Part shown: piece by piece, positions 966 through 48,224 of the stretch
Numbering within the stretch: position 1 is the first letter of the stretch
Layout of the letters: each line of letters opens with the position of its first letter
NCBI GenBank assembly: GCA_964234715.1
Contig: OZ174277.1
DNA: 64,000 nucleotides
Strand: one strand, 5' to 3'
Origin: Podarcis melisellensis
Lineage: Eukaryota
Position numbers and translations under genes: made by a program
The notes under the pieces: generated by a model
Told to the model about the DNA's origin: nothing
Seen by the model: only the letters and a program-made list of their open reading frames with translations
The model's database searches: none

Positions 966-2526
966 AGAAACTTATTCAGAGACACGGGAGCAATATGGTC
1001 ATAAAGCACCGAAGACTTTGTACTTCTTAGAAGTTGTGTACAAAGATAATCAATGGGAATTCCCTCTAGAGATGTCTGTTTATACGCTGTTCTTCTTTTG
1101 AGCTGTTCTTGGCTCTGGATTCTTGGTGTTTTCTACAAACAACACAGCAGTTCCCTGCCACTTGAACCAGCGTTTCCACCCTTCCTTAGTCTGATATTTC
1201 CCACTCAGCCAGGGCTATGGGCTGGACCAGCTCAGGCATGGAGGCCTGGATCTCTGCCGGGAGATCTAATTATAACAATGTCCTCTTCCTCTGACAGGGA
1301 GTACGTGTTCATTTCTAATCCACTTGGCCCAGTGACCAAACACAATTAGCTTAATGCAGTTTCCCTGACTGTTATCAGATGCTTTAGCTACATATCTGGA
1401 GATCTACTCCAAATGCTCATAAGAATGGAGCAACTCCCCTCCCCTCACACTGTCTTCATCCTCTGTTTCATTGGCTAGGGTAGGAAAGCTGAACCGGGGG
1501 GGGGGGGGGACTCATTTCTCAGAATTCCCATTCCACACACTGATGCACAGGCTGTCAACACGGTACTCTACAAATCTTTTAGATAACAATGTCCATCATT
1601 CTTGACCATGTGCTGTTAGATACCGTAAATCAAAGAAAATTCCCCAATTCTTCCTTGAATGGACACTTTATCCCCAAGAAAGGGAGGCCAGACACAGGCA
1701 TCAAAGTACGACTCCAATTAATTAGAGCGTACTGTGGGCTATGCCGATCGGGAGTCCGCACTAAGTTCAGCATCAGTGCCAAGCTAGCAGGGGCTGATGG
1801 GAGTTGTATTCCAACAACGTGGGAAGCTAGCATGTTAGCTAGCCCTGAACTAGAGGTCCTGAACTAGAGGTTCCAACAATTCATAACATGTGAGCTACTA
1901 TAAGAGATTTTCTGCAAATAATGCTCATCATAGTCCCTCCATGATAAACATACCATGTTCCTTCAGACATAGCGCAGAACCTCAGATGATGTGTGGCTCA
2001 CCCCAGCTCTACTTCCTACCTTAGAGCGGATGTCTAGGGCAGGGAAGCCTGCACACCTGGGCCTCTACATGCAGGGTTCCAGGACCAGTAAAGGTCCATG
2101 CGAGTAGGCTTCCCTGTCTCAGATATCCACATGGGGCTGGGGGGAGAAACACACGCAGCAGGGTAGTGTAATTTGGTTGTTTTAGCGGCTGTCCAAATAT
2201 ATTTCCAGGATATCTTTTTTCCAAAAAATAAATAAAAGCAATGAGGTCAATGTCACGGCAGCTTTTTATATGTGTTCCTTTGCACATGCAAAGTGTCTCC
2301 CTTAATTGAAATGAGTAACATCATGGGAGGGGTGTTCCCAGATACCCCATCCTTTGCCCTTGGAAGCCTTATAAGCTGCTGCTGCTGCATGAGAGGAACA
2401 TTGAGCAACATCATGAGAAGGTTGTTTCTAGGACTAAGGTGAAACTGTGTAGCTCCCTTACTATTTTTGCTATGCCACATGTAATCTTGTTATATTTATA
2501 GCATTGAAATGTGTTTGTTATGTTAT

Positions 2527-3360
2527 TGTGTGGACAGGAGGAGTCCCTTCCAACCCCAGGTTACTCCCGAGTGGAATAATGACTCAAGACAACGTGCTAT
2601 GGGATTAAAATTGGCCACAACTTTATTAAGTTTCAGATGTAGGGAGACCTTGGCTCAGGCATTGGGCATTCATCCTTCCCAGTCCACAGCCAGGGATCTG
2701 TGGGACATCAAGGTTATCCAGAATGTGTGGGGATTGGGTTGGCTCTGAAGAACATATGTTCAAGCAGAGAGCCCGCCCCCTGTTTTATCGCCGTCACAGG
2801 GGAGAGTTATGACAACCTTTCAGCGAATGGCCAATGCTTCCCCTCAAGACCCCTTTAACGGGGAACCCTGAGATCACACCCCCCCCCCCAATTTATGGAA
2901 GATAGACTAAATGATTCTGCCCAAGGCCTGAAACCGCCAAAGTTGTGACATTTTGCTACAGGGAAGGCAAAACCTGCCAATACAGGAAAATTCCTTTCTG
3001 GCCTTTCAACAGCGGCCTTAACGTAGTAGCACCCACATACCTGTGGAGAAAAGGTTAACTTGCAAAAGAAGGCTTAACTGAGGGAGGGCAGGGTGGGAGA
3101 AGCTCTGGAGCCAACTGACGCTTTCCAGGTACGATTCACCATCTGTTATCTGGGCAGGGCGGTCCCTCCCCTTACCTGGCCGATCCCCTGGCAACGCCTC
3201 CCCAGGTGGGATTGGGCGATTGGCTGAAGTAGGCAGAGACCTCCAAGTATCCAGCCTGGGGAGGGCGAAGCCAGCCCATACTACCAGAAGCCGCATGGGA
3301 TCCGGGGGGCTGTGCACGACCACGTAAAAGGCGCCCCCCATTTGATGTGGGGAGCGGTCG
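2527..3360 (-). mobile_element. Solo A-spacer-B terminal unit of an Ngaro-like tyrosine-recombinase retrotransposon (diverged family)
   Basis: On the minus strand it shares, in order, a C-tract border, the U-rich loop motif, TAGCAAAATGTCACAACT, TGGCGGT, GGGT-N4-CGTTAAAGG, CCAATGCCTG, AATAAAGTTGTGGCC and a CACAC end with the terminal unit of the full element at 42141-42939. It is about 830 bp, has no ORFs, and 'gttat' occurs at both junctions. Confidence 0.8.
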
Positions 3361-6300
3361 TTATATTTTTGTTTTGCTGTGTTTTTATGGAATTGTTTTT
3401 ATATTGTTTGCTTGAAATGCATCCCTGTTTCTTTGTTGCAAGTCACTTTGAGCAGTGTGTGTGTGTGTTGTGTATGGAAAAGTGGCTTGCCGATAAAATG
3501 AAGGGATGAATGGCACAGCTTTTGACAAATGAACATGAACGAACAATCAGGGAATATTTTATATAAAGAAGATAGTGTCCCTGGAACAAGGCTAGCTGCA
3601 ACCGTATCAGTCCCGTGGTGAATATCACAGCTCAAGTCTTGGAAACATAGGAAGTTGCCTCATATGAGGTCAGACTATTTGTTCATCTATCAAAGCGTTG
3701 TCTATTCCAGTGGTGGCTGGTGCTCACTGGAGTAGTACAGCATAAGTGATAGGGGTCAACAGTAAGGAGAACCAGAGTCAAGGAGAGTCCAGTTTTTCCC
3801 CCACCCACCTTCCTGTTGAGTTCTGCAAAGACAACACTAAGACAAAGGAGGAATAAGCTGTTGCCCAGTATCAGCCGCTAGACTGGAAGTAGGGCAGGTA
3901 GAGACTGGTTGAGGGCAGAATGACATTGGTGCTCCTCTTACCCTAATGGACCAGGCTTCACAGGCTCCAACTAGGGTTTCATTCAGAAACCACTGCTACC
4001 TTTTTTCCTTTAACTGAATATGATGAGCATCAAACACTGAACCTTTAGGGTGTTTTTTCCCCAGAATCTTTGCTGTGTAGTTCCATACAACACATGGGCT
4101 TGAAGCCAAGTTTTTTGGTGCTGAAAATTGGGGTGCAGACTTCCACTTAACAAGTAGGTGATTTTAGGCATCTCTCTCAGTGTGTCTCACCTTACAAGTT
4201 GGGAGCATGGCATAATAACATGAATAATACAGTTCAACCTCACAAGCTCCCTTTTGGGACCATTCTCTGATACACCCTGTATGCCCTTCAGATTGATTTT
4301 ATTTGCCAATTAACTTAATGACAGATCGTTGCATTTTAAATATGCACTTTACTCCTTGTTTTTATGTTGCAAAGCTGCTCCAAGAGGATATGAATTGGAA
4401 AAAATGGAAAGGCTGAGTGAACAGTCAGAATAATGTGTTTCCCACATTTCATAAATGGATAATGCATCATATGCTTGAAGGCCACAGGTCTCAGTAATAA
4501 GGAGCAGAAAATGAGTTGCAGGTATAACACTCTAGGAAGCTACCTGTTTTCAGCTGGAAAGCAGAGTCAGAGGTTGCAAAGACTTAACAGGCAACTAAGG
4601 CAGACACTAGAAGAAATCAGCAGCATAAGCAGTCAGAAAAGGGGTCACAAAAGGGCTAAACCAAACAGCAAACACCAACTGATGAATGCAAAGCCTTGTG
4701 GATGTTGGCCAACAGGAAACCTTTTAACTACAACCAGTTAGAATCCCAGATTTTAGACTAGAAAGGAATTATACATAAATTCAGAAAAAGCCCAGCACTA
4801 TAGATATGATCAAGTCCTAATCCACAGTTTCGTAACAGATTTAATAAAAAAAAAAATGTACACCCTTCCCTAGCCCCACACTCTCTTTACTATATCCCTC
4901 AATATCAAAATTTATATGGAGCTTCAGCTTCCTTTCCCTCATTAAATAACAAGATGGAAGAGCCATTGACATTGATTGTGACATAGAGAAGAGTGGCAAG
5001 GTTGGAATTCAAGAGCTCACTGAAAGACATGAGAAAAGTCCTGTTGGATCACCTGAAGGATTCATCTAGTCCAGCATCCTTCTTTCTGCAGTGACCAGAC
5101 ACCTCTGGGAGTGTCTTGAGATCAATGCCACACCACGTTACATCACACAGCATAGTTCCCAAGGCATTCCAGGAATTGTGGCAATTGGGAAGCTGTGGAG
5201 AAAGACCTGTACTATTTCCTAATGATCACGCTTCCTGGAATGCTTTGAGCACCCTAGAATGTAATGTGGCATCATCACTCCAGTGGCATTCCACAAAGGG
5301 CAGCTGGTGAAAGTTGTGGAACAGCCTTGTACCACCCTCAGCAATGTAGTTTAAACAGGAAAGTGGGGGGGGGGAGGAAAGTCCTTAGCTACCTCATAAG
5401 GGTAAATAAGATAAGGAGAAACATCCCTCTCCCCCCCAAAAGAACAACCACCCCACAGCAATCGCCCCATCTTTCAGAGAGGTTAGTTTCACAACTGCCC
5501 ACCAAAAGGTTGAGAAATGAAGTTTTGACATGTTCAACTCAACTTAAGACTGGCTTTGCATCCATTCCATTTCCGCAGGAAATCTTGGGGAAATTCATTT
5601 TAAAAGGGAAAGTACTATGTCTCTTTTATAGATAATTATCAGCATGGCATGTCACCAAGATACCATTACCAGGATTCTCTGGAGGAAAGCATTGCACTAC
5701 AAAAGATAAGACCACAAATGTACTTTATTTGACCATTATTCTCCAGAATCAGTGCCTAGATAGGAGTTTCTCTTCTTAAGGTGGAAAAACACCACAGAGT
5801 GCTAGAAGACTTGGCTGTGGAAAAAAGATAATTCCACCATCCTAAGTTCCTACAAAACCTTCTAAAATCCTTTCTTCACGGAAACAAACAGCATAACTGA
5901 AATCACCCTCGTAATGCATCCTAATGCTGGCTCACAAGTGAGGAAGAGCTGTAGAAAGATTGTAAGATGCTACTTTTGAAAGATGATGCTTAAATCACCC
6001 TCTTAATCCTCTAAAAAAAGCTACATTCATTCTGCAGTGGTCTTTACTATCAAAACAGAAATGAACTCTTAGAACACTGAGAAATACATTCAGGTCCAGT
6101 CCAGATCGCAAAAAGAACATTTAGCTGATTGTTAAAGAAAGAACCAGGGACTGGAACCTTTCCAAAGTCAAACATTCAGATGATTTCAAGTGACATTACA
6201 AAGTGTTTTGGGTCAAGCACATTTGTCACTCACTATGAAGAAAACAGAAGGTGACCGTTTTTATACTGATAATGTTACCAATGTAACCTTTTCATTCAGT

Positions 6301-14580: not shown

Positions 14581-15551
14581 TAGGGCTGGGTGATATCAGC
14601 TTTTCAACATCGCGGTGTATCGCCAGCCAAACATCACAGTTTGGCAATGCCCCTTCCGACCTTCAGGAGGAGGGGGGGTTGTGGGATCACGACCCCGCCC
14701 ACACTCGCTCTCGCGAGGCTGGCGTCAGCCTCGCGGGAGACAGGGATTCCCTCAATTAGCATACCCTGTGGCGCCAGCCAATCGGCTGGCGGCAGGGGCG
14801 GGGCTTCGTAGGGCCACTTAAGGTCAGGGCAGCCCCTGGCTCGCCCCCTTTCTTCCCTGGAGACGACGCGGTTTCCCACCCACCCGCCCTTTAGGTTTTG
14901 CCACTGACCTTGCTATGGGCTTCGGCTGGTCGCCGCAAGGGGCCTGGTAGGAGTTTTTCCATTTGGCTAATTGGCTGGTTTGGTGAGCCACTTGGTTTTT
15001 TCGCCTACCTCGTAGCAAATCGTCACAACTCCCTCGGTTTTGGCGGTAGGCATTGGCCGGGGTATTATCATGCAGATGAGGTTGGGGGGGAGGAACGCCA
15101 TCACCTCCCCCAATGCTTGAAGGGTAGTTCGTTAAAGGACTCCGAGGGGCGACGCCTCGTCCGAAACCTACGGAGGCTAGGGCCTAAAGCGCGCCCCCGA
15201 GCAGTAACCCCTCGGGGAGCGCCTAGGGATATGCATCTCGGGTGGCTCCCCCTGTTGGTGTTTAACCCTTCCCGGTCAGACCGGATAGTCGGTTAGGGCC
15301 AATGCCTAAAGCCAATACCCTTCTTTCCTGTAATCAATAAAGTTGTGGCCATTTTCGCCCATTAACCTAAAAACTCTGTGTCCGTTGTCTTCATTTATTC
15401 CACCTGTGGGGGGGAGGGAATAGCCACACAATATACCACCACTCAGGCGTGGTGGTGGTTTCACCAGCGATATACTGCTGAGTTAAACCAACATAGCAGT
15501 CTGCTCCTCATACTGGTCCTGGGCGATATATTGATATATTGCCCAGGCCTA
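14581..15551. mobile_element. hAT-type MITE interrupted by an Ngaro-like solo unit
   Basis: TIRs tagggctgggtgatat / atattgcccaggccta, with a perfect 8-bp TSD gtgaatag at 14573-14580 and 15552-15559. Confidence 0.85.
14639..15430 (+). mobile_element. Solo A-spacer-B terminal unit of an Ngaro-like retrotransposon (second family)
   Basis: About 792 bp against 799 bp for A2-spacer-B2 of the full element. Shares TAGCAAATCGTCACAACT, TGGCGGTAGGCATTGG, GGGT-N4-CGTTAAAGG, CCAATGCCTAA and AATAAAGTTGTGGCC. 'caca' occurs at both junctions; CCAAT and GC boxes lie in the A part. Confidence 0.85.
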
Positions 15552-18940: not shown

Positions 18941-19165
18941 CAGTGGTAACTCGGGTTACAGGCGCTTCAGGTTACAGACTCCTCTAACCCACAAATAGTA
19001 CCTCAGGTTAAGAACTTTGCTTCAGGATGAGAACAGAAATCGTGTGGCAGCGGCACAACGGCAGCAGGAGACCCCTTTAGCTAAAGTGGTACCTCAGGTA
19101 AGAACAGTTTCAGGTTAAGGATGGAGCTCCAGAACAAATTAAGTTCTTAACCCGAGGTACCACTG
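18941..19165. mobile_element. Tc1/mariner MITE (cagtggtacctc family), copy 1
   Basis: TIR cagtggtaactcgggtta / taacccgaggtaccactg with TA TSD. Confidence 0.9.
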
Positions 19166-20175
19166 TAGCATATAAGTGTGTGTGTGTAACACAAAGGTGA
19201 TGAGTAGACTAAATTTTTAAGACTAAATAGCCATTGGATGCTAACAGTTACCCTATTCAGCTATGTTTAATGGGGCTACTATAATCAACATTGTTGGGGG
19301 GAGGGTAGGATCACAAACCCCCAACCCTCCATAGACTGATCATTCCTTTGTGCATACGGTTTCTCTCTCTGTGTGTACACCAGGTGTACATCAGGTGTAC
19401 ACAAGCTTTGCATATGCCAAGTGGTATTCTATATTTTGCATGGAGAGCACCTAAGAGCACATAATTTGCACGGACTGGCTCTGTGCATAAATAAACCATC
19501 AAAGTAAGGAATTCAGAAACAGAGCCTTCCGATTCTTCTCTCCTTCCATGCATCACCTGCAACACCCACAAATTAAGAATATTTGACAAAGGGCTAGTGA
19601 TGTTTAATTTTTGAAAGCAGCAAGTTTAACTGGTTTAATCAACCCAAGCTATGTGCCAGTAAATTCACTCGTACTGAGGGCCAGTTGTGAAGCTTCTGGC
19701 CCTTACTATATCAATCACTTCTCCCTGGTCAACCCAGAGATACCCACAGCACTCTCCTATTCACTTAAGTAAGTCCCACTGTGTTCAATGGAACTTACTC
19801 CCTAGTAAATATGTTCAGGGGATAGCAACCCAAATCTGTTTTCATTATACTTTCTCCAGTTGAACCCGAAAAAGTCAGGCTTTCCTCAATATTGCCCTCA
19901 ATCCATATGTAAAATGTGGAGGGAGTTTGTAGAAAAGCACGGCCTAGAGTACTTTCATTCCTCGCGCTGCATCCCTGCCAGCATCATGTCACCAGGATCC
20001 ATTTTGGCAAAACTGCAAAGCTTTTTGCTCTCTTAGTGTACTGTACTACTAGGATTTGGGGGGATGTCATACTAGCAAGAAAAGCAAGAAATGGAAACAT
20101 GTAGGAGGAGACACAATTTCAGAAAATCTCATTGTTCTTATGATGAAACTGGAGATATAGAGCTAACTAAATGTG

Positions 20176-23500: not shown

Positions 23501-24998
23501 AATCATTAGCTTTGTTTGTGCCACTCTACAAGAAAGAGAGCAGGAAAGGTCATCATGATGCAAGGCCTCCAGAGGTGGGTGGGGCAGCAGGCTCATTTGG
23601 AGAAAATGTGCAATTTCTCTGCACACAGGCCCTGTACAGCCCATGAGAGCACAACCAAGCAATTCTACCTCAGAAATGTCAGGGCTTTAGATACACACAC
23701 CAACCATTGCCAGAAAGGCTTGGCATATGTACCAATACACGTCTTCCTATCAGAGACATCAACAAATCCACTCAGCCTGCTCAGATCTGCTGCCCAGGTG
23801 CTCACTGTCAACAGGCAACTTTAAAAACTATAAGAAGGGAGTCCAGAGATCTTGGAGAGATCTTGGACTGGGCAGCCCTTCAATTAGATGGCTTTCTTCT
23901 GTAAAGTAGGACAAATAGCCACCCTCTGTGCTGTTCAAACAGCTTTCAATTTCTGACCTGGGCAATTAAAGCTATCTATGAGTGATGGTGGCAGAATAGC
24001 TTTTCAAAATGTCTATTGTACTAAGTTTGGATGTTCTTACAGATAAATCCACTGGGATTGAAACATAACATTTAAGGCAAAACAACATGAATCAGAGACG
24101 TAAATTCTGCCCTCAGATTCCCCTTTGGTCAGGAAGACACAAGCCATAATGTAATTCTTCACTGTCTATACAGAGCACATGGATTTTGTCTCAGCAAGTT
24201 CTGGAAGAGCCCTGGTTTATCCTCATGTGCAGAACAGAAGCAAGCCTCACAGCTGTCTAAATAGGCATCTGTTGTTAGCATTCTTTCTTTTGTTTTACTG
24301 TGGAATAAACTGCAGAGGAAAATCACCAGCAGAATCCCAGGTTAACAGCAGGATTAATATGGCTCTTGCACAGGTGATGGCTAAACACAAGCAAATACAG
24401 GGTGCTTTTCTCATTTATGTCGCCTTGTTCTGGAAGAGCTGCAGTCGTAAAGTAGTCTAGTGTCACCAATTCCGGTGAAACAGCCACTATTTGATTGCCA
24501 CAAATCAGCATGTTGTAGAAACACAGGAGGAATGAAACTGGGAATAATTTTGCCTTTGGGCAAAATGCTGAATGCCAAGATAGAGGAGCAACCTATTCAT
24601 GTGTCCACTTGTTAATATTGGTTCCAAAACTAAAGATCCTGGTTCTCAGGTGAAATCTTTCCAAGCCATGAACTGAATTGCTCATTGTCTGCAGACCTCA
24701 CTACTAGCAGCCCAAGCCACACTTTACATACCAAGGGTGTGTGATGAAACCCCAATGGCTCTTGAAAATGATGCACTTAACCCTTTTCTGCTTCTGGTCA
24801 TTTTCATTACTTCTCATTGAAATCTCCTAACAGAAAATCAGATAAGAAGGAAGTCTGAAGTATAATCACAGTTAAATGAACGCCATTAAAATTACAAATA
24901 GGATATAGGTCTGTTGTGAGATACACACAGTGTCAGAAGGTAGGCAAAGGGTATGTCCAAGGGACTGGGCCTCAAGAAGAATCTTTCTTTTGAAGGTA

Positions 24999-25240
24999 CA
25001 GTGGTACCTTGGGTTACATATGCTTCGGATTACATACACTTCAGGTTACAGACTCCACTAACCCAGAAATAGTGCTTCAGGTTAAGAACTTTGCTTCAGG
25101 ATGAGAACAGAAATCGTGCTCTGGCGGCGCAGCAGCAGCAGCAGGCCCCATTAGCTAAAATGGTGCTTCAGGTTAAGAACAGTTTCAGATTAAGAACGGA
25201 CCTGTGGAATGAATTAAGTACTTAACCTGAGGTACCACTG
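24999..25240. mobile_element. Tc1/mariner MITE, copy 2
   Basis: Same TIRs and body as 18941-19165, with TA TSD. Confidence 0.9.
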
Positions 25241-27009
25241 TATATCTGAAAGGTTGGGGAGTTACAGGGCATGTGGGCTAGACCTGCCCACCATGCTCCT
25301 CCAAATACCTGCTGGGCACTCATTAGAAAGAAATATCTGCACACACAAGGAAGGCCGCTGATTGGCCAGGCATGTGTCAGGAGACCACGACAGCAATGAA
25401 TAACAACAGCAGTAGGCAGAGCATCCCATGCAGCCCCCTCCACACATTTTTTCAAGACATGGAAGGGTTTGTGTGCACGCGTGCACTCACACGCACACAC
25501 CACACAATTAGCAACATTTTGAACTATTTACTCTAATCCAAAGTATTTTTGCCTTGAGTCACTGCTACATATCAAATCCTCCCTAACAAACAGAGAGATA
25601 GATTTTTAAGCAACAAAACATCAACACTAAACCATGAGCCTCATCATTGCAAAGCACAGTGACACATTGCCACGGCTGAAGCCATTCTCATCTCTGCATG
25701 CCATACCATGGGCAGTTGCACATTCCAGTTTGATGCTATTCGTGCTTCGTTTGAGTTTGGCTTCTGCAGCTTACAGGAATGCCTAATAGCTGGGGACAGA
25801 GCTGGGAGTTGTCCATATGTGGAAAAGTCTGCCTGTGGGCTAGCCATTGGTCACCCCATTGAACATGCTTGTCAAAGGTTTGCCCGGCAGCAGGAACTGG
25901 ATTGTCCTTTGTATCCCAATAATCACCCTACTAGTCAGAGCCTGATAACCAACAATAAAAGTGCCTCTGCACAACCACATTCTTCTCTTACTGAGAAACG
26001 AAGCTCGGACAGCATATCAGATGTACATTGACCCTAAATATACTCTCTTGTACTCTCTCTGTGGGGCTCAGTTACAGCAGTTGCTTGGCTCTGAAGGATT
26101 AATTTGCCTTTGAACCCAACCTCGCCCATTGTGATCACATTACCATAGCAACACTTTTCTGCAACACCCCAAACATGACCCACCCAAGGTGATGCCATAT
26201 TCCACTTGTTCCAGACACACACACACACACACAGGCAAGCAAATCCATGTTGGCTAGGAGCAGATTAGTAGCCAAAAAAGTTCACAACCACTATGGTGGT
26301 ATGTTGCAATATTAGCATTAAAAATAACATGGTCACAACTCACACCAAATGAAACCCTCATCTCCAGGAATCTGGCTCTGAAACACAAGGAGTGGAAGGC
26401 ATCCAGCTTCAGGAAAATGTGGTATATCTATTTACCGCTGAAACTAGTTCCTAAAAGACAAGAGTGTGTGCTCTTGTGAGCCACTTCCCTTCTCCTAAGA
26501 ACTGGGTATTTGCATTAGAACAGTTAAGAAAGAAAAATGAAGACTTCCTATTTATGCATTATTTAACAACAAGGTTCCCACAAGGAAATTTTTAAGGAGG
26601 ATTTCCTCACAATGCTAATTTTTAAATCAGCTCTGTGCTGCAATCACATGAACTATTCTCAAAGGTGAACCCTGTATGTCACACAGTGTCCATTTCCACA
26701 TTGATGCAGTTTAGTTCGGAAGCTACGCTCACTGCTTCCCATGTCAGCTTCTGCAGTCTTGATGACTGAATGTCTTGCCCTTTTCTTTGGCCTAGGAAAC
26801 TGGGAAATCATTAGGGCTGCTTAAAGTGATTGAAGCTTCCCGCGATGACTATATGAAACAAAGCCACAGAGAAGCTTCTGTGCTTTCAGGTTGCCTCAGT
26901 AACACATGAACTACTAGCTCAAGGCTGCAGCATCAGCAAGCCAGAAGAAGAAGTTGACTTATTGAAGGAACTCCCCAATAATAGAAGGAGGTGGATGCAA
27001 AGCCCAGTA

Positions 27010-35601: not shown

Positions 35602-35814
35602 AAAGCGTGTTCTCCCTAAAAGAGAGCACGTGTTGCGGATGGGGCCAGGCAAAACCCAGGTTGCCAAGCATGATTAGATAGGAGGGGCTTGGAGCAGTTT
35701 GGATATTGGTGTTGCTGAGGATAAATTGATGTTGCCAATTTAGGGGTGGGATTAGTGGCTATTTAAGTAAGGTTCACAGCTTTCTCTTTCTCTTTTGCTG
35801 TGAACATCGGATCT
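35602..35814 (+). repeat. Split direct repeat A1 (213 bp)
   Basis: Identical by eye to 42141-42353. Confidence 0.95.
35705..35766 (+). promoter_or_regulatory. Putative Pol II promoter in repeat A
   Basis: ATTGG at 35705, GCCAAT at 35734, GGGGTGGG at 35743 and TATTTAA at 35760-35766, followed about 25 nt later by a pyrimidine-rich initiator-like tract. Confidence 0.6.
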
Positions 35815-36742
35815 TCAACACCGGAGTGGATCGGCAAAAGAGTTGGTTGTATAAACCCTTGTTCCTTTTCTTCCTCTTCCTTCGTTTCTATCTATTTCTT
35901 ATTTACTTATCCTCCCTGCTAATTCACCCTTCTATTTAATTCACCTCCTCTTATTTTCTAATTGTTGATTTGGGACTCTCATTGGGGGGGGGAGCCTCAC
36001 GGTCCCGGGGGGGGCTTACGGCCCGGTTCTCGGCCGAGCCACTAGACCCTGGACGGGAGTTTGGCCCCTTGCAGGCTGTTGTTTCATATTTTAACCTCCC
36101 CACCCCCCCCAACCTGCATCCGCAGCTGCGTGCGCTGGAGCCTGACGCGGCTGGCTTCGGCCCGGTCGGGCCTCCTCCGTTGCGGCTGCCCAGGCTTCTC
36201 CGCGGCTCACTCGGCCCGGCTGGGCCCGCGCCGCTTCCTCCCACCCCACCCCCTTCCCGCGACTGGGGCCTGTGAGCGCCAGGGGCCTCCTCGGGCCTAC
36301 TCGGCCCTGTCGGGCCTGCGTTGGCCCGGGGACCGGCAGCGGCCTGTGCGGCCCGGCCCCGCCCACCTCCGCTAGGCGCCGGGTGCTGGGATCGGTTGGC
36401 GCGGCCTAGCGGGGCCTGCCCTGCCGGGCCTTCCTTCCACGGCCGCCCCCCCCGTTTAGGAGCGGGCTCCAGGCGGGAGCCGCTGGGGCAGGTAACGACT
36501 TGCCTGGCGTCGGTGTTGGCGGCGCGCTCCTTCCGCGATCGCGGGCCGGGGTTTCGTGCGCTTGAGCCCTGCAGGCCTTTAGGCGATCTGGGGGCTCCCG
36601 GCCGCTCTTGAGCCCCTTCCTCCCCCTTCCCACCATCTCCGCCCCTGTGGTTTTGGGGGGGCGCCGGGTTGGGGACTGGTGGTGATCCTCCATTTTTCAG
36701 GTAATTTGGCGGGAGCGCCATTTTGTTGTGTTCAGGCCTGCA

Positions 36743-36841
36743 GCGCCATCTAGTGGGCCAGCTCCGTAACTGCAGCCGGCTGAGAGCTAGTGCTGGCCCA
36801 ACCTGAGTGGAGCCCTCTAGTGGCTACCTCTTGCATTGCAG
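36743..36841 (-). promoter_or_regulatory. Two tandem CTCF-like sites with upstream motif in the element leader
   Basis: The minus strand reads CTGCAGTT-acggagctggc-CCACTAGATGGCGC and CTGCAATG-caagaggtag-CCACTAGAGGGCTC. Confidence 0.65.
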
Positions 36842-37059
36842 TGTAATTTGTTACTACCCTTGCTATCTGTGGATTTGCTTTTCAGCTGATTAAGCTGCTT
36901 ACATTTTGAGGTCAAAGCCTTGGTCTAAATTGGGTCGTTACTTACCTACTGGTCAATTAATTGCTGAATATTAATTTTATTTGTATTGATTTGCTTAGTT
37001 CAATTTTATTGTTTCTTTGAATAATTTTAATTTTGTTTTATTTTACGCCAGTAGTAGGA

Positions 37060-38586
37060 ATGGCTCCAAAAAAGGCTACAAAGAAGTCTGGTCCGCCCCT
37101 CTCTGCGAAACGGCCCATAAGGGGCCCGTCTCAAGCTCTTCGCTCTCCTGCGCCTGGTCAGTCGTTGCAGCGCATTCAAACCATGGTCTCCAGTTTGGCC
37201 GGCGACCCAGTGGCATTGGCAAGGGTGGAGGCCGAGATGGATGGCCTGCTACACCGCGCCTCCACCCCTTCGACTTCATCAGCAAGGCTGGTTCCTCCTG
37301 CGGGTACCGCGTCCCCAGTGTTGTCATCCAGTGAAGACGAGAGAGAGGCATCATTTGCCGGGGGTGTTCTTCCAAATACGCAGTTGGCTCGGTCGCTGGT
37401 TTTACCTGCCCCGCAGGTCTCTGTGGCTAGGGGTCGTGGCCGGTCCAGGGCCGGGACCAGGAGAAGGGAATCAACCCGGGGACGTGCGGCGCGGGTTTCC
37501 CCCGCGCAGCCTCCAGTAGCAAGTAGGGCAGTGCCGGGGCATTCACAAGTTGTCTCTTTCCAGTCATCTCCAGGCGCTGGGCAGCAGGGCGATGTGTCTG
37601 AGTCTTCAGTAGAGGACAGCCTCCCCCCACCTCCAAAGACCTCTTCTGGAGGGCATCGCCGCCGCAAGAAGAGGTCCAAGAAGCGTGCCAAGCGGAGACG
37701 AAGGGACACCTCGTCGTCTTCTTCAGGTACATCTTCTCAGACTTCTAGTAGCGATGAGGAGGCGTCCTTGAAACTTTATTGGGGTTTTGGAGAGGCCTCG
37801 GGGCTCCCAAAGTGGGTTTGGGAGAGGAGGGCGAACTCCCACAGGGCCAGGTACGGGGCAGTACAAGAGTGTTTGGATGGAGTGTTGGTACCTGAGGTAA
37901 GGGTATCCACCAATTCAGCCAGGGATCTTATCCCAGGGTCACATCTGTCCGCCACATTACGGTCCAGGATCTTGAATGGGCGTTATGTGGATATTTTTAG
38001 CTTGGCCCCCCCTCTCGAGGGCCAGGAGCCCCTGGATAAGGGCTTGCCTCCAGCTAATAAACGTTCGATCTTAGCAAAAGCGGACAGGAATTTTGAGCGT
38101 TGGTTGGATAGTTTCCAGGTTTTTGCTGGAGTGGTTTCCGCGGCTTATCCCAGGAGGTCTTTGCACTTGTGGGTTTATCAGTCCATAGTCCGCTCGGCCT
38201 TTACTATGGCCGGGGAAGCTGCCGCTCTGTCCTACGATCAGAATTTTAGACGTAGAGCGGCCAAGATCCCTACTGCCCGCTGGGATCGAAAAGACTTGGA
38301 TGTCTGGACCACTTATGTGGCCCCTAGAATTGATAAGAAAGCCCCTGATACACAGAAGTTTAAGTCGGCCCCAGCGAGACCTGGCCGTAAGCTGGTCTGT
38401 TGGGACTTCAATAAAGGTACTTGTCCGCGGCAATCCTGCAAATATTTGCATGTGTGTGACAAGTGCTCAGGTAACCACGCAGCCTCCACATGTGCCGGCA
38501 GCCGGCGGCCATTTCGGAAAGGGGGAGGCTCACAGCAGCCTCCTAAAGCAGCTTCCCAAGCTCCTGCCACTGGAACAGGGAAGTAG
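37060..38586 (+). CDS. gag: Ngaro ORF1, Gag-like protein with a basic NLS-like tract and a C-terminal Cys/His zinc finger
   Basis: ATG at 37060 (MAPKKATKK), RRRKKRSKKRAKRRRR, YDQNFRRRAA, and CWDFNKGTCPRQSCKYLHVCDKCSGNHAASTC. Confidence 0.9.
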   Translation: MAPKKATKKSGPPLSAKRPIRGPSQALRSPAPGQSLQRIQTMVSSLAGDPVALARVEAEMDGLLHRASTPSTSSARLVPPAGTASPVLSSSEDEREASFAGGVLPNTQLARSLVLPAPQVSVARGRGRSRAGTRRRESTRGRAARVSPAQPPVASRAVPGHSQVVSFQSSPGAGQQGDVSESSVEDSLPPPPKTSSGGHRRRKKRSKKRAKRRRRDTSSSSSGTSSQTSSSDEEASLKLYWGFGEASGLPKWVWERRANSHRARYGAVQECLDGVLVPEVRVSTNSARDLIPGSHLSATLRSRILNGRYVDIFSLAPPLEGQEPLDKGLPPANKRSILAKADRNFERWLDSFQVFAGVVSAAYPRRSLHLWVYQSIVRSAFTMAGEAAALSYDQNFRRRAAKIPTARWDRKDLDVWTTYVAPRIDKKAPDTQKFKSAPARPGRKLVCWDFNKGTCPRQSCKYLHVCDKCSGNHAASTCAGSRRPFRKGGGSQQPPKAASQAPATGTGK

Positions 38587-40192
38587 TACCCTGTTCTCCT
38601 TGGCACATACCCCTGTGCGGTTACAGCCATTGCTATCATTGTTAGCTCTATACCCTGACAGTGCATCGGCATCTTATTTGCGTGATGGTTTTTCTTTTGG
38701 TTTCAGGATCCCAGTCGCCTCCACCCCTGTAGCTGGGAACCCTGTTAATCAAAAATCGGTTAAGGATATGCCAGAGGTGGCACGCAAGAAAATCGGGAAA
38801 GAATTGGCGTTGCAGCGTATGGCTGGGCCTTTTGCCACCCCCCCTTTTCCTAACTTGCATATTTCACCCTTGGGCATCGTTCCCAAAAAGGCTCCGGGGG
38901 AATTCCGCCTAATCCACAATTTATCTAGTCCTAGAGGCACGTCAGTAAATGACGTAATTCCCCCGGAGCTTTGTTCGGTGAAGTATGCGTCTCTTGATCA
39001 CGCGATCAAGATCATCAGGAAGTTCGGGCGGGGTGCCCTGCTAGCCAAATGCGACATTGAGTCGGCGTTTCGGCTGCTTCCTATTCATCCCGATGACTTT
39101 TGGCTGCTAGGTTTCCAATTTGAAGGGGGTTATTATTTTGACAAAGCTATGCCCATGGGCTGCTCGGTGGCCTGTGCGGCCTTTGAGTGTTTTAGTTCAT
39201 TTTTGGAATGGGCTTTGCGTGAAAAAACCGGTTTGGGCGGGGTTACGCATTACCTGGATGATTTTTTGATGACTTCGGCAAAAAATACGGGTAATTGTGA
39301 GGTGCTTTTGCGTGCCTTTGCCTCCCTGGCGGAGTACCTGGGCGTTCCGTTGGCGGCGGAGAAGACCGAGGGCCCTTCTACGCAGCTGACTTATTTAGGT
39401 ATCTTGCTGGATACGGTGGCCCAAACTTCCAGTTTGCCGCCTGAGAAGATTACCACTTTAAAGAGGGTCATCAGTGAACTCCTTCCCTTAAAGAAGGTGA
39501 CGTTGCGGCAACTCCAGTCGCTGCTGGGTCACTTGAATTTCGCTTGCAGGGTGGTCGCTCCGGGGAGGCCATTCTGCTCACGTTTGGCCAGACTGACATC
39601 GGGGCTGCGGGCCCCGCAGCACAGAGTGCGCCTTCCTCAACAAGTGAGGGCTGACCTTAACATGTGGTTGGAATTCCTAGAGGAATTCAATGGTGTTTCC
39701 TTGTGGCAGGACATTTTGAACCTCCATAATGATTTTCAGGTGCACTCTGATGCGGCGGGGTCATTGGGGTTTGGTCTCTACTGGGATGGTAGGTGGTGCG
39801 CGGAACACTGGCCTCCGGATTGGCGTGGAGAAGCAATAACTCGAGATTTAACGTTCCTTGAGTTCTTCCCCATTGTGGTGGCCGTGCACTTGTGGGTGGA
39901 GCATTTCAGAGACCACCGGGTTTGCTTTTGGTCTGATAACCAGGCGGTGGTGAAGGTACTGGCTAAGCAGTCTTCACGATCTCCGCGAGTATCAGCTTTG
40001 CTGCGGGCGTTTGTATTACACTGTTTACGCTTTAACATAGTGTTTTCTGCCCGCTTTATTCCGGGCATATCTAATGAGATTGCTGATGCTCTGTCCCGTT
40101 TTCAGATGGAGCGGTTCAGGTCCCTGGCGCCACTGGCTCGAGACCGTCCGGAAATTTTCCCGGATCATCTCTGGAACCTTGGCAGCACTTAG
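38300..40192 (+). CDS. pol: Ngaro reverse transcriptase / RNase H
   Basis: 630-aa ORF overlapping gag. RT motifs FRLIHNLS, KCDIESAFRLLP, MPMG, YLDDF, YLGILLD. RNase H motifs HSDAAG, LEFFP, WSDNQ, NEIADALSR. Confidence 0.95.
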   Translation: MSGPLMWPLELIRKPLIHRSLSRPQRDLAVSWSVGTSIKVLVRGNPANICMCVTSAQVTTQPPHVPAAGGHFGKGEAHSSLLKQLPKLLPLEQGSSTLFSLAHTPVRLQPLLSLLALYPDSASASYLRDGFSFGFRIPVASTPVAGNPVNQKSVKDMPEVARKKIGKELALQRMAGPFATPPFPNLHISPLGIVPKKAPGEFRLIHNLSSPRGTSVNDVIPPELCSVKYASLDHAIKIIRKFGRGALLAKCDIESAFRLLPIHPDDFWLLGFQFEGGYYFDKAMPMGCSVACAAFECFSSFLEWALREKTGLGGVTHYLDDFLMTSAKNTGNCEVLLRAFASLAEYLGVPLAAEKTEGPSTQLTYLGILLDTVAQTSSLPPEKITTLKRVISELLPLKKVTLRQLQSLLGHLNFACRVVAPGRPFCSRLARLTSGLRAPQHRVRLPQQVRADLNMWLEFLEEFNGVSLWQDILNLHNDFQVHSDAAGSLGFGLYWDGRWCAEHWPPDWRGEAITRDLTFLEFFPIVVAVHLWVEHFRDHRVCFWSDNQAVVKVLAKQSSRSPRVSALLRAFVLHCLRFNIVFSARFIPGISNEIADALSRFQMERFRSLAPLARDRPEIFPDHLWNLGST

Positions 40193-41079
40193 TTTTTCAG
40201 GGAGTAGCTGCTTCTGTCGCCCCCTCTACTTTGAGGTCCTATGAGAAAGCATGGGCCGATTTTTTGCTATTTAATGGACAGTCAGTAGCTGGGGAGGTTC
40301 TTGCCCCCCATTCTACATCCCAGGTGCTCAGGTATTTAGCACATTTATTCCAGAAGCGCAGGGCAGTCAGGACGCTGCGCCTTCACTCAGCAGCGATCTC
40401 CTTTTTTAGTAAGGCATTCTTCAACAAAGACCCGTGTGGGAAGTTTGTGGTGCGCAAGGCTTTGGAAGGATGGGGGCGATTGCTCCCCTCCGGGCTTCCC
40501 CCCCGACGACCCATCACTTTTGAACTTTTGGCAAAAATGCGCTGTAAATTGCGCAGCATCTGTTGGTCGTCTTTTGAGGCGCGGCTATTTTCCGCAGCCT
40601 TTTCATTAGCCTTTTTTGGGGCTCTGAGGGTAGGTGAGGTGGTACTGGAGCCTAAGCGGGATGGTGGTTCCAGGGGATTATTGCTACAGGACGTGAGTTT
40701 GTCTCCGTCTGAGCTTCAGGTTAACGTCAGAAATTCGAAGACAGACCAATTGGGCAGGGGTGCCATTATTCGGCTCCCGGCGTCGGGGGAACGTGGCCCT
40801 TGCCCTGTAAAAGACCTCACAAAATATTTGGCCTTGCGTCCAGCAGGTGAAGGACCCCTGTTTATTCATGAGAACGGGCGCCCTCTGGGGAGGCATCAGT
40901 TCGCCAGAGTGTTGCGTAAAGCTCTTGCAGCTTGCGGCCAGGTGGCATCGGAGTTTGCACCTCATTCCTTTCGGATTGGTGCTGCAACGACGGCTGCCCA
41001 TTGGGGTTTGTCGGTGCATGGGATTAAAGATTTGGGTCGTTGGAAATCGGGGGCATTCAAAGTATATGTGCGCACATGA
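40087..41079 (+). CDS. Tyrosine recombinase (frame open from 40087; first in-frame ATG only at 40537)
   Basis: Full catalytic set: R (ALRVGE), K (SKTDQ), HxxR (HSFR), W (GRWKS), Y (KVYVR). Confidence 0.95.
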   Translation, partial: CSVPFSDGAVQVPGATGSRPSGNFPGSSLEPWQHLVFQGVAASVAPSTLRSYEKAWADFLLFNGQSVAGEVLAPHSTSQVLRYLAHLFQKRRAVRTLRLHSAAISFFSKAFFNKDPCGKFVVRKALEGWGRLLPSGLPPRRPITFELLAKMRCKLRSICWSSFEARLFSAAFSLAFFGALRVGEVVLEPKRDGGSRGLLLQDVSLSPSELQVNVRNSKTDQLGRGAIIRLPASGERGPCPVKDLTKYLALRPAGEGPLFIHENGRPLGRHQFARVLRKALAACGQVASEFAPHSFRIGAATTAAHWGLSVHGIKDLGRWKSGAFKVYVRT

Positions 41080-41692
41080 TATGGATATGTACTTACATTT
41101 TTTGTGTTTAACCCTAGGTTGGGCTCCTATCCGTATTTGGATAGTAGGCCACAGTATTGTACATTGGGCTGCCGTCAGAGCTCGTCAGTCTGGACTGGGC
41201 GAGGGCCTATGCTTCCCACAACACGTTCAGGTTTCCTGGATCTCCAGACGGGGGATGCTGTGGAGTGAATTCTTACCACTCATGCGAAGGCGCGTTTTCC
41301 AGGATGGTCCTCCTTCAGCGATTGTGGTGCAGCTCGGGGAGAACGATATCGTATCTTCTTCCTGCTTTGGGCTGCGTGCTGCCATTTTACAGGACTTGGG
41401 GGAATTGGCGGCCATGGTGCCTTTTACTACACTGATTTGGTCACAGTTGCTTCAACGCCGCACGTGGCGTGGTAGTCCCTGCCCAGCAGCCACTGAACGG
41501 GTTAGGAAGCGGGTTAATTCCGCAGCAAGCAAGTTGGTGGTGGGCCTGGGCGGATTGGTGATACCTCACCCTCTTATTTCATTCAAGGCTGCTGAACTAT
41601 ACAGAGATGACGGGGTTCATCTCTCTTCAGTGGGGAATGATTTGTGGTTGGATTCAGTGGTGTCCAAGTTGAGGGTCTGGTTTGCTTTGTGA
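40847..41692 (+). CDS. SGNH/GDSL-family hydrolase (domain ~41118-41692)
   Basis: Block I IVGHS, block II RRG, block III LGEND and block V DGVH. Hydrolase ORFs are known from some vertebrate Ngaro elements. Confidence 0.9.
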   Translation: MKDPCLFMRTGALWGGISSPECCVKLLQLAARWHRSLHLIPFGLVLQRRLPIGVCRCMGLKIWVVGNRGHSKYMCAHDMDMYLHFLCLTLGWAPIRIWIVGHSIVHWAAVRARQSGLGEGLCFPQHVQVSWISRRGMLWSEFLPLMRRRVFQDGPPSAIVVQLGENDIVSSSCFGLRAAILQDLGELAAMVPFTTLIWSQLLQRRTWRGSPCPAATERVRKRVNSAASKLVVGLGGLVIPHPLISFKAAELYRDDGVHLSSVGNDLWLDSVVSKLRVWFAL

Positions 41693-41720
41693 GTGGTTGG
41701 CGGCGAGCGTAGGGCTCGAG

Positions 41721-42140
41721 TGGCGGTTAGGCATTGGTTAAAATTGCTTGGTGGAGGGGTATGGATAGGCTGGGCCTGCCCCTCCAATGCTGCTGCTGCA
41801 CGGGTATTCCGTTAAAGGAATTCTGAAGCTTACCATCCCCTTCGTCCAAACCCTGACGGCAGGGTGCGGGCCGTGTAAGCTTCAAGGAGCATGCGGGGTG
41901 TAGCTGAGGGTCTGATTCACAGCTCTGGCTGGCCCTGATCTTGTTCCTCCGAACTGGCTAAGGAGTCAGTGCTGTCCCCCAAGGCGGGAGGGGACAGCTA
42001 GTCATAACCAATGCCTAAGCAACCATTCACAATTTGTATGATAATAAAGTTGTGGCCAAAATTATGCCAAAAACCTTAAACAAAAATCACGTGTCATGTG
42101 TGAGTTATTGGGGTAGGGGTTTTGAAGGACCTCGTCACGC
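41721..42140 (+). repeat. Split direct repeat B1 (420 bp), AATAAA at 42043-42048
   Basis: Identical by eye to 42517-42936. Confidence 0.95.
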
Positions 42141-42353
42141 AAAGCGTGTTCTCCCTAAAAGAGAGCACGTGTTGCGGATGGGGCCAGGCAAAACCCAGGT
42201 TGCCAAGCATGATTAGATAGGAGGGGCTTGGAGCAGTTTGGATATTGGTGTTGCTGAGGATAAATTGATGTTGCCAATTTAGGGGTGGGATTAGTGGCTA
42301 TTTAAGTAAGGTTCACAGCTTTCTCTTTCTCTTTTGCTGTGAACATCGGATCT
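42141..42353 (+). repeat. Split direct repeat A2
   Basis: Copy of 35602-35814. Confidence 0.95.
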
Positions 42354-42516
42354 CCCGCCCGCCCTCCCTTGTTGGGCTTGCGCTTGACCTTGCTTTGCCT
42401 GTCATGGGGTCGTCCGCCTTGGTGCGGGGGCCCAGTAGGAATTTACCAATTGGCTGATTAGTGTGTGCCTTTTGGGTTTTGCCTACTGCTTAGCAAATCG
42501 TCACAACTTGTAAGGT

Positions 42517-42936
42517 TGGCGGTTAGGCATTGGTTAAAATTGCTTGGTGGAGGGGTATGGATAGGCTGGGCCTGCCCCTCCAATGCTGCTGCTGCACGGG
42601 TATTCCGTTAAAGGAATTCTGAAGCTTACCATCCCCTTCGTCCAAACCCTGACGGCAGGGTGCGGGCCGTGTAAGCTTCAAGGAGCATGCGGGGTGTAGC
42701 TGAGGGTCTGATTCACAGCTCTGGCTGGCCCTGATCTTGTTCCTCCGAACTGGCTAAGGAGTCAGTGCTGTCCCCCAAGGCGGGAGGGGACAGCTAGTCA
42801 TAACCAATGCCTAAGCAACCATTCACAATTTGTATGATAATAAAGTTGTGGCCAAAATTATGCCAAAAACCTTAAACAAAAATCACGTGTCATGTGTGAG
42901 TTATTGGGGTAGGGGTTTTGAAGGACCTCGTCACGC
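42517..42936 (+). repeat. Split direct repeat B2
   Basis: Copy of 41721-42140. Confidence 0.95.
42839..42844 (+). terminator. Polyadenylation signal of the full-length element transcript
   Basis: AATAAAGTTGTGGCC is conserved in all three Ngaro-like units, with a GT-rich tract downstream. Confidence 0.7.
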
Positions 42937-43298
42937 AAAATAACAGGCTGAAAAACTCTGGGGGTTTATACCACTTTAAAGAGCTGGCCCATGAGAAATT
43001 ATACATAAAACTGGGGGTGGGGGAGGGGGAGATACCAATAATAAATAAGACCCACAGTGATGAACAGGATTCAGCGAGTGGCCAGAGAGCTCCCAAAATA
43101 ACCCTAACTGGACCAGAAAACAAAGGCCACAATATCTGACTGCCAGTGGCACTGATATGAACATCAAGATGCCCAGATGGATGGCAGTTTTCTATGTGGT
43201 TATATCTGCAACAATCTTCACATGTTTTACTTAGAAATGGAGATTAAAGTTTGAAAGCCAAGAGGTTCTATTTGTGTGGGGCAGGGTAGGTCCTTGTC

Positions 43299-44612: not shown

Positions 44613-45164
44613 CATGATTTTACACACTTTGGGAGAGAATAATGGTCTGAATCACAGAATTAACGCAATATAAGAAAGAAAGAAGTGTGTGTTAAACCTC
44701 AGGACGTGGCTAAAAAAGAAGAAAAACCTTGCATCTCTTCCACTGAGATGCAGATCTCACAGTTGGCCATAACTAGGGATTGAGGAAATCTGTTTGGTTC
44801 ACATTTTAATATAAGCCTACCATTCTAACACATTTCCCAGTAACATGTGAACCAAAACAATACTATCCTTCAAAATTCACCCTTCTCCTAATTTTCCAAT
44901 GCAGTTCACCAACCCAGAAATGAATACTAAAATGCACATATTAGGGAAAGTATACATAAAAATGCATGTTATAAAAGGGGAAAATGTTTGCAAATATGCA
45001 TACATTGGGCAAAATTGCACACTAAAATATGCATGTTAGGAGAAATCCTCACTAAAGCAAATGAATTTGAGAACCTTTTTTTTAATGCAAGCTGATGTAG
45101 AAATGTGAAGAACAGAGATTAAGACTGGAAAAATGAGAAACGTGGAGTAACTGAAATTGACATA

Positions 45165-45399
45165 CAGTGGTACCTCGGGTTACGAACTTAATTTGTTCCA
45201 GAGGTCCATTCTTAACCTGAAACCATTCTTAACCTGAGCTGCACTTTTGCTAATGGGGCCTCCTGCTGCCACCACGCCAAGCGATTTCCGTTCTCATCCT
45301 GGGGCAAAGTTCGCAACCCGAGGTACTACTTCTGGGTTAACGGAGTTTGTAACCCGAAGTGTTTGTAACCCGAAGCATTTATAACCCGAGGTACCACTG
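45165..45399. mobile_element. Tc1/mariner MITE, copy 3 (opposite orientation to copies 1-2)
   Basis: TIR cagtggtacctcgggtta / taacccgaggtaccactg with TA TSD. Confidence 0.9.
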
Positions 45400-46156
45400 T
45401 ATTTGTCCATGACTATGTTCACATCATAAGAACATACCTAGCTGGTAGCTGCTCTGAAGGGCAAAATAAATTTGTATTTGATGCAAGATGTCACTGCCAT
45501 TCCTTCAACATGTTTTCAGATTTTGGAGCATGTTTGCAAACTCTGGGCTCTAGAGCTGAGCTAACCCCTGCTTGATTCAGTGTGAGACTTGCTGAGCTTC
45601 ATCCAAATTCACTGAGAAACAGAACTTCCTCCTACAAGCTTTTGTTGTATGCTGTATTACCCAATGGGACAGAAATTATGGGGCAAAAGGTTTCCACTTG
45701 CCTGGAATCCTATTAAGACATTTTGTTTTACTTCTGGCAGAGTCAGATCTGAGTGAGCAGATAATTTAATGAAAGGAGGGATCATAACAGGCAAAGTCAG
45801 GCTTAAAGGGTGGAGCGGGGCTGGGGGTGGGAAAAGCTTCACTAAATTTCTTGGCGTTCAAGTTTACCCTACTCCTTAAGTTTCAGAGCATGAAGCACAG
45901 AAAGCCCTGAGCCTTAAGAGGGCAAAAGGCCAAAAGCTACATGGGAATAAAGATATAAATTAAACAGAGGAAGGAGAATGCACAGAAGTTCATCCGCCTC
46001 TGACTAGTTTAACAGGCTATTCCCTTCCTTCTCCTGAATGGTTTGTGTTATCGGAGATTTCTAGTGCATTTGAAAGCTTTGCATGGGATTTACCTGAGGT
46101 AAATTCATCCGCGTACCTGAAATACATTTATTGCCTATTCATCAAGAGGACACACA

Positions 46157-47779: not shown

Positions 47780-47959
47780 CTAGAAAAACATCAAACATAG
47801 ATCTATGAGCCTCCAAAAAGTTTTACATTACCCCCTGAAGAATTATTAGAAGCGCTCGCCTACCAACACACTTCTGGGAATTTTTAAACTATGCAATTCT
47901 GTAAAGGCATTCAGATTAAGAAACGGAATCCAGTTAATTGTGCTGTGGCTTACTGAGTA

Positions 47960-48201
47960 CAGTAGTACCTTGGGTTATGAACTTAATTTGTTCCGGAGGT
48001 CAATTCTTAACCCGAAACCATTCTTAACCCTGAGGCGCACTTTCGCTAATGGGGCCTCCTGCTGCTGCCACGCTGCCAGCGTGCGATTTCCTTTCTCATC
48101 CTGGGGCAAAGTTATCAACCTGAGGAACTACTTCCGAGTTAGCGGAGTTTGTAACCCAAAGTGTTTGTAACCCGAAGCGTTTGTAACCCGAGGTACCATT
48201 T
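47960..48201. mobile_element. Tc1/mariner MITE, copy 4
   Basis: Same body as 45165-45399; right TIR degenerate. Confidence 0.85.
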
Positions 48202-48224
48202 TATCGGCTTATGGCAACACTGAC

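Follow-up and report, generated by a model that had tools for sequence, protein, structure and literature searches.

The right end of a Ngaro-type tyrosine recombinase (YR) retrotransposon of the lizard Podarcis melisellensis carries two identical poly(A) signals, one in each copy of its repeat B, and RNA folding models predict that the two are closed reciprocally, on the upstream side at B1 and on the downstream side at B2. The upstream closure is a stem found at B1 only, formed with the flank that precedes B1, and the downstream closure is a short helix (P1) formed between the unique spacer S and the end of the B2 signal. The preferred reading, to which a probability of about 45% is given, is that the B1-only stem weakens the internal poly(A) site, and that P1 clamps the poly(A) tail at an ENE-like loop and so protects the read-through RNA.

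The element spans 7.3 kb of the window (the whole stretch of 64,000 nucleotides that was analysed) in the order A1-ORFs-B1-A2-spacer-B2. A1 and A2 are 100% identical, as are B1 and B2, and these split direct repeats (A1 ... B1 A2 B2), together with overlapping reverse transcriptase (RT) and YR ORFs placed 3' of a gag-like ORF, are as in Ngaro-like retrotransposons. There are four overlapping ORFs, which encode a CCCH-finger protein, the RT, the YR and a fourth protein that has no Pfam match at E 0.01; from its sequence, and from a position as in the Xenopus Ngaro, ORF4 is likely to be the SGNH hydrolase that vertebrate Ngaro elements have past the YR in place of a methyltransferase, and PF13472 is carried by two YR homologues among the matches listed. 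The YR has 554 homologues, with the named ones in lizards, amphibians and molluscs; the closest of these are from lacertid lizards, followed by geckos, Anolis, amphibians and molluscs. The TATA-like sequence of A1 is a candidate promoter, and the palindrome at the B-A junction would be the recombinase crossover site. The P1 strands were ruled out as recombinase sites, since the element ends at the CAA/AAA junction. A1 is followed by a GC-rich 1.2-kb leader (35815-37059) that extends to the first ATG of ORF1 and varies in length among copies. Each B also contains a hairpin (41788-41854 in B1, 42584-42650 in B2) within a multi-way junction; its loop is a conserved GUUAAA, replaced by GGUAGA in some families, its stem shows compensatory changes, and it has no Rfam match. 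Elsewhere in the window, four copies of what is probably a non-autonomous DNA transposon, short and with inverted ends of the TACAGTGGTAC type, lie in both orientations (18936-19167, 24997-25246, 45159-45404 and 47958-48204).

Table 1. Positions in the window of the element, its predicted RNA structures and two solo copies
Feature	Position	Strand	Remarks
Solo A-S-B, third family	2526..3363	-	5' end approximate
Solo A-S-B, second family	14645..15431	+	
Repeat A1	35602..35814	+	213 nt, identical to A2; TATA-like sequence near 3' end
ORF1	37021..38586	+	Gag-like by position; CCCH zinc finger match below Pfam cut-off
Reverse transcriptase ORF	38189..40192	+	RVT_1, E 3e-12
Tyrosine recombinase ORF	40087..41079	+	Phage_integrase E 2.7e-5, below cut-off
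ORF4	40811..41692	+	follows YR; conserved DGVHLS motif
B1 stem, 5' strand	41687..41699	+	ORF4 stop codon and next 7 nt
Small hairpin	41704..41718	+	conserved, between TGGCGG motifs 41698-41703 and 41721-41726; upstream of B1 only
Repeat B1	41721..42143	+	423 nt, identical to B2; helix P2 (41727-41737 with 42008-42018) closes inner domain
B1 stem, 3' strand	42020..42032	+	inside B1
B1 AATAAA	42043..42048	+	
B-A junction CACGC-AAA-GCGTG	42136..42148	+	short palindrome; element ends fall here
Repeat A2	42141..42353	+	
Unique spacer S	42354..42516	+	163 nt, between A2 and B2
ENE-like stem-loop	42434..42487	+	lower stem 42434-42439/42482-42487, upper stem 42446-42449/42472-42475; U-rich internal loop
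P1, 5' strand (spacer)	42500..42509	+	GTCACAACTT
Repeat B2	42517..42939	+	helix P2 (42523-42533 with 42804-42814)
B2 AATAAA	42839-42844	+	last two A's inside P1 3' strand
P1, 3' strand (B2)	42843-42852	+	AAGTTGTGGC
Predicted cleavage site	42864..42865	+	CA 19-22 nt past hexamer

All copies compared come from one genome, that of Podarcis melisellensis; the 23 distinct B2 and solo sequences used below represent three visibly different families that were grouped by eye. A first look returned 1,435 candidates for the recombinase and 1,950-3,959 per query for three spacer-B queries, figures that are not copy numbers. Of 60 recombinase-anchored loci, 35 have both B1 and B2, 21 end at B1, one has a partly deleted spacer and three are unclear. 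When Anolis, gecko and frog recombinases were used as queries of this genome, the families fetched all had the same motifs. Solo A-S-B copies are common here, and solo AB remnants are known for Ngaro (PMC8547959); the solos are derivatives of full elements, and they add families while providing no independent test of function. Very young solos are frequent, with a single signal in 25 of the 30 best second-family matches (L051-L080, 96-100% identical) and in 15 of the 30 best matches of the window's family (L001-L030). Young solos and B1-ending elements could reflect recombinase resolution of a circle with two B-A junctions, rather than slow recombination after insertion. Two further loci depart from the common layout: L042 has an extra tandem A-S-B unit (+7552, +8361, +9170), giving B1-A-S-B-A-S-B, and L117 is a full copy with a spacer that has neither the P1 strand nor the right half of the ENE-like loop.

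The earlier note on this DNA had stated that B1 lacks an upstream partner. This is correct for the P1 strand, which at 110 loci lies 307-391 nt upstream of every spacer-preceded B and is absent within 200-480 nt of every B1; B1 pairs with another strand upstream, at the end of ORF4 (B1 stem in Table 1). Among 21 distinct B1 flanks, cognate strands of this stem average -26.6 kcal/mol compared to -14.0 between clades, and the matrix of pairings resolves into at least four blocks, each of which prefers its own strands; within a single clade the values are -33.6 and -28.9 (permutation p 0.001, with kinship not corrected). In a fixed register, from which 6-7 rows with indels drop out farther along, positions 1-3 are G-C, G-C and U-A in the window's clade, A-U, U-A and G-C in the second and C-G, U-G and G-U in the third. 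These compensatory switches lie beside the anchor, mostly in non-coding sequence past the ORF4 stop.

In folding models the B1 stem buries the sequence immediately 5' of the signal in B1; in one clade it also takes in the first bases of the hexamer. In the second clade the stem extends to about 25 bp and the AAU of the hexamer is paired at a probability of about 0.8 or more in six of nine rows; in the window's clade (11 of the 21 rows) the firm part of the stem mostly ends at least 10 nt before the hexamer. To open the stretch from -15 to +4 around the hexamer, 20 of 21 elements are predicted to need more energy at B1 than at B2 (means of 10.1 versus 2.9 kcal/mol), and for +4 to +15 the reverse is predicted, also in 20 of 21 (8.6 at B2 versus 3.7 kcal/mol at B1); the 21 elements are kin and these counts are not independent trials. 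For the hexamer alone, the opening energy is about equal at the two sites and its sign inconsistent (22 rows, one rearranged). If the skipped signal is to be the more occluded one, as in retroviruses, the models agree with this on the upstream side (20/21) and for the start of the hexamer in one clade (6/9), but not for the hexamer overall and not for P1. The suggestion of the earlier note that two identical signals are made to differ by structure is retained in the form of reciprocal closure by the flanks, the models giving the signal a different fold in B1 from that in B2. The final bases of S form a shorter pairing with the B segment that the B1 stem engages, and they follow the changes of that segment, so that a single B domain is closed in alternative ways by its two flanks. 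It may also be that the B1 stem just completes a B fold needed in both copies.

P1 joins GTCACAACTT of the spacer to AAGTTGTGGC of B2 through perfect complementarity save for one U-G pair, and overlaps two A's of the window's AATAAA, as the earlier note had described with the right coordinates; the counterparts that it gave for the two solos are also there (15022-15030 with 15341-15349, 9 bp, and 2939-2949 with 2614-2624, 11 bp). The partners had been called near-invariant, and over 23 distinct B2 and solo sequences the eight-pair core is indeed nearly unchanged: the strands are complementary in 23/23 with 96.5% of positions paired, and neither strand varies, nor does the U-G pair (23/23). None of the ten pairs has changed on both sides; seven never vary and three depart solely by unpaired cells. 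Among the same sequences, both-sided changes occur in four of the six pairs of the ENE-like lower stem and in two of the 11 pairs of P2, and RNAalifold recovers the P1 core, P2 and the ENE-like lower stem. The number of hexamer A's under P1 varies by family, with one A in three sequences, two in 10 and three in 10.

Taken as a single copy, the P1 duplex is only modestly above chance, its -14.1 kcal/mol being reached by 31 of 1000 dinucleotide-shuffled spacers. Single-sequence folding gives P1 a probability above 0.5 in 17-18 of the 23 sequences; for the window's copy the value is 0.19 or 0.72 depending on context, and falls below 0.02 in a 1.2-kb fold of its entire B1-A2-S-B2. A genome-wide search with three single-change versions of the 3' strand gave 44, 18 and 136 matches, of which 30, 18 and 30 were examined, and a compensated P1 was found at none of these 78 loci, about a third of which are unclassifiable. 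The mutated strands are scattered over families, and the spacer strand that accompanies them is canonical or decayed. Because P1 shows no covariation, the case for it is made by its conserved complementarity and by its nesting, directly outside the covarying P2 and beside the covarying ENE-like stem.

The ENE-like loop is present only in the spacer. Its lower stem is 97% paired across the 23 sequences and is topped by two G-C pairs in 21-22 of them, placed as for A-minor contacts; the definition of an ENE has G-C pairs adjoining the U-rich loop (PMC7583470). The internal loop is U-rich on two sides, as in an ENE, with a 3' run of 4-7 U's in 23/23 and a 5' run of 3-6 in 21/23; the 5' run is just three in the window and degenerate in two third-family copies, where it has one or two. 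Judged by sequence, the spacer loop fits the secondary-structure definition of an ENE, and the triple helix that this implies is putative; Rfam models run over 42100-43000 gave chance-level matches only and no match to an ENE model. In Arabidopsis, an ENE raises the RNA stability and the mobility of Evade (PMC12501189). A conserved CA lies 19-22 nt past the hexamer and is followed by GU/U-rich sequence in 23/23, and cleavage is predicted at this CA. P1 lies 12 nt from the lower stem on one side and 12 nt from the predicted cleavage site on the other, such that it would, in agreement with the earlier note, bring the ENE-like loop beside the tail.

The proposed division of labour begins at B1, where the stem would dampen the internal signal and let some transcripts read through to a B2 signal that is presumably the one used. 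Together, P1 and P2 would then fold away about 330 nt of B2 as a loop, and the newly made poly(A) tail would emerge beside the ENE-like stem-loop. As the spacer is present in the read-through RNA only, the loop would selectively stabilise that RNA, which would also be the only one with the B-A junction from which both ends could be rebuilt, by analogy with the internal complementary region of DIRS-1 (PMC7192593). It counts against this proposal that a mere clamp would be expected to accept compensatory changes, of which P1 shows none.

The same invariance of both strands and the U-G pair, amid neighbouring helices that covary, argues for a second reading, which is compatible with the clamp and is possible, if on the whole unlikely: that P1 acts as a signal for reverse transcription, the RT or Gag of the element recognising a sequence-specific duplex close to the 3' end of the RNA. 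In one variant P1 would be a self-primer, where an end trimmed to 42852 creates a primer-template junction pointing into the spacer, and in another it would fix the place of the last B1-to-B2 template switch. Tf1 is self-primed by an 11-bp duplex. For DIRS-1, the primer is described as unknown (PMC7192593). Differences in TGGCGG to the left of P2 are inherited by siblings (four copies in one family and two in another), just one difference inside the block is shared, and from P2 onward B1 and B2 have no differences in 23 of 51 copies, a floor as five rows are mis-anchored. The identity of B1 and B2 thus starts at the base of P2 and places the boundary of the copied block about 12-20 nt from P1, in favour of a role in reverse transcription. 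However, cleavage is predicted 12 nt past P1 and is followed by the tail, so that priming would need trimming, and one interior B1/B2 difference is common to two independent insertions, which means that B2 is not always recopied whole from B1. A broader version, in which the spacer and B2 form a self-contained Ngaro 3' RNA machine, with the ENE catching the tail, P1 acting as primer or RT-loading site and a mutually exclusive B1 stem setting the amount of template, is considered improbable.

The earlier note had cast P1 as the switch between the two 3' ends, and this part of its proposal is not supported by the folding models. P1 is found at B2 only, but it sits on the signal that needs to be used and mostly closes it. 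Blocking the spacer strand in the model lowered the opening cost of the hexamer in 12 of 19 elements and raised it in seven (three of 22 rows were left out, as rearranged copies or as lacking the spacer strand in the folded stretch), and in 14/19 P1 makes it costlier to open the sequence that runs from the hexamer to the cleavage site. The seven elements in which P1 eases the hexamer all belong to the window's clade, where a local AAUAAA hairpin competes (in the window, 2.0 kcal/mol with P1 versus 3.9), and P1 could there free the B2 signal from an inhibitory hairpin. Against this, the overlap with the hexamer is not fixed and ranges from 1 to 3 nt, and in HIV-1 a stabler AAUAAA helix lowers use of the site (PMC2645353), which is the wrong direction for B2. 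In these models P1 does not look like an activator of B2, and it is quite improbable that P1 itself decides the choice of 3' end. If structure controls read-through, the covarying B1 stem is the better candidate. The least probable reading, that the two 10-mers are separate protein-binding motifs of DNA or RNA in inverted orientation that have no need to pair, would account for the zero covariation, for the 3% of shuffles that match the single-copy duplex and for the weak P1 of the window's fold, but sits poorly with the nesting of P1 between covarying helices, with a sole fixed mismatch that is a legal U-G on the sense RNA and with the 17-18 of 23 sequences in which P1 is predicted to form.

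Four contig-only runs of related organisms, guessed to be RNA and compared at 80% likeness, contain contigs that join ORF4 to B and the spacer to B. A poly(A) tail was seen at none of the 24 loose contig ends among those listed (there are 175 more), the single listed contig across the B-A junction extends too little to one side to be counted, and contig depths from these runs cannot rank parts of the element. Among 80 metagenome loci (30-47% YR identity), the six repeat-bearing ends listed are all without these motifs; many duplexes of -15 to -32 kcal/mol lie near AATAAA or ATTAAA at such loci, as values without a control from which no claim is drawn. One metagenome element (L134, 37% YR identity) has a hydrolase-like ORF past its YR and pairs 2859-2885 with 3006-3025 at -24.9 kcal/mol; here the 18 nt past AATAAA have their complement 150 nt farther downstream, which recalls P1 with a different sequence, in a single uncontrolled case on a contig without B2. 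Matches at 80 viral loci were weak (24-36% identity), most likely to phage integrases, and both partners were absent from 18 viral pattern matches. Likenesses to ribozymes and retrons, supported by no test, were dropped.

In a split-repeat YR retrotransposon, transcripts have to run past the first poly(A) signal and end at its identical copy 800 nt farther on. Short, named helices, one compensatory and one invariant, make the questions of read-through and of the primer testable. If the preferred reading is true, a tetrapod YR element joins those with tail protection of the ENE type. In this genome, where the family is large, many solos therefore combine a promoter-like repeat with an ENE-like loop and a poly(A) signal.

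Among Ngaro-like elements, Xenopus DIRS-53_XT has the same A1-ORFs-B1-A2-B2 repeats, a gag-like ORF, RT, YR and a fourth ORF past the YR (10.1101/2021.08.05.455354, PMC8547959); the element described here differs in its 163-nt unique spacer between A2 and B2, with conserved RNA helices. The accessible parts of the literature covered hold no account of RNA structure or of 3'-end choice in Ngaro repeats; the 2016 ENE catalogue and the original Ngaro papers, outside that scope, might list the loop or the helices. SIRE of VIPER, from kinetoplastids, is likewise what remains of a YR element with split repeats, in the order A2-spacer-B2 (PMC6681497), and the likeness drawn is one of layout.

The ENEs of KSHV PAN and of Evade/Copia93 share with the spacer loop a two-sided U-rich loop beside G-C pairs, located near the 3' end of an intronless mobile-element RNA. 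In contrast to these, about 375 nt of sequence separate the spacer loop from the predicted tail, and the two would be close solely if P1 and P2 form; the U-runs of the loop are short, with extra purines. The list in a review of ENEs comprises plants, fungi, a slime mould and stickleback retroviruses, and in that list there is no YR element or reptile (PMC7583470).

Two retroviruses provide further parallels. In HTLV-1, the R spacer is likewise a long-range fold that shortens several hundred nucleotides near the 3' end (PMC2645353), although there it joins AAUAAA to the cleavage site; in the present element those two adjoin, and it is the tail and the spacer that folding would bring together. 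In HIV-1, the polyA hairpin and the U3 upstream element tell identical end signals apart by a unique flank together with RNA structure, using one local hairpin at both ends and an enhancer unique to the 3' end (PMC2645353). In the Podarcis element, by contrast, each copy of the signal is predicted to have its own long-range partner, and the signal to be skipped lies just 800 nt from the final one.
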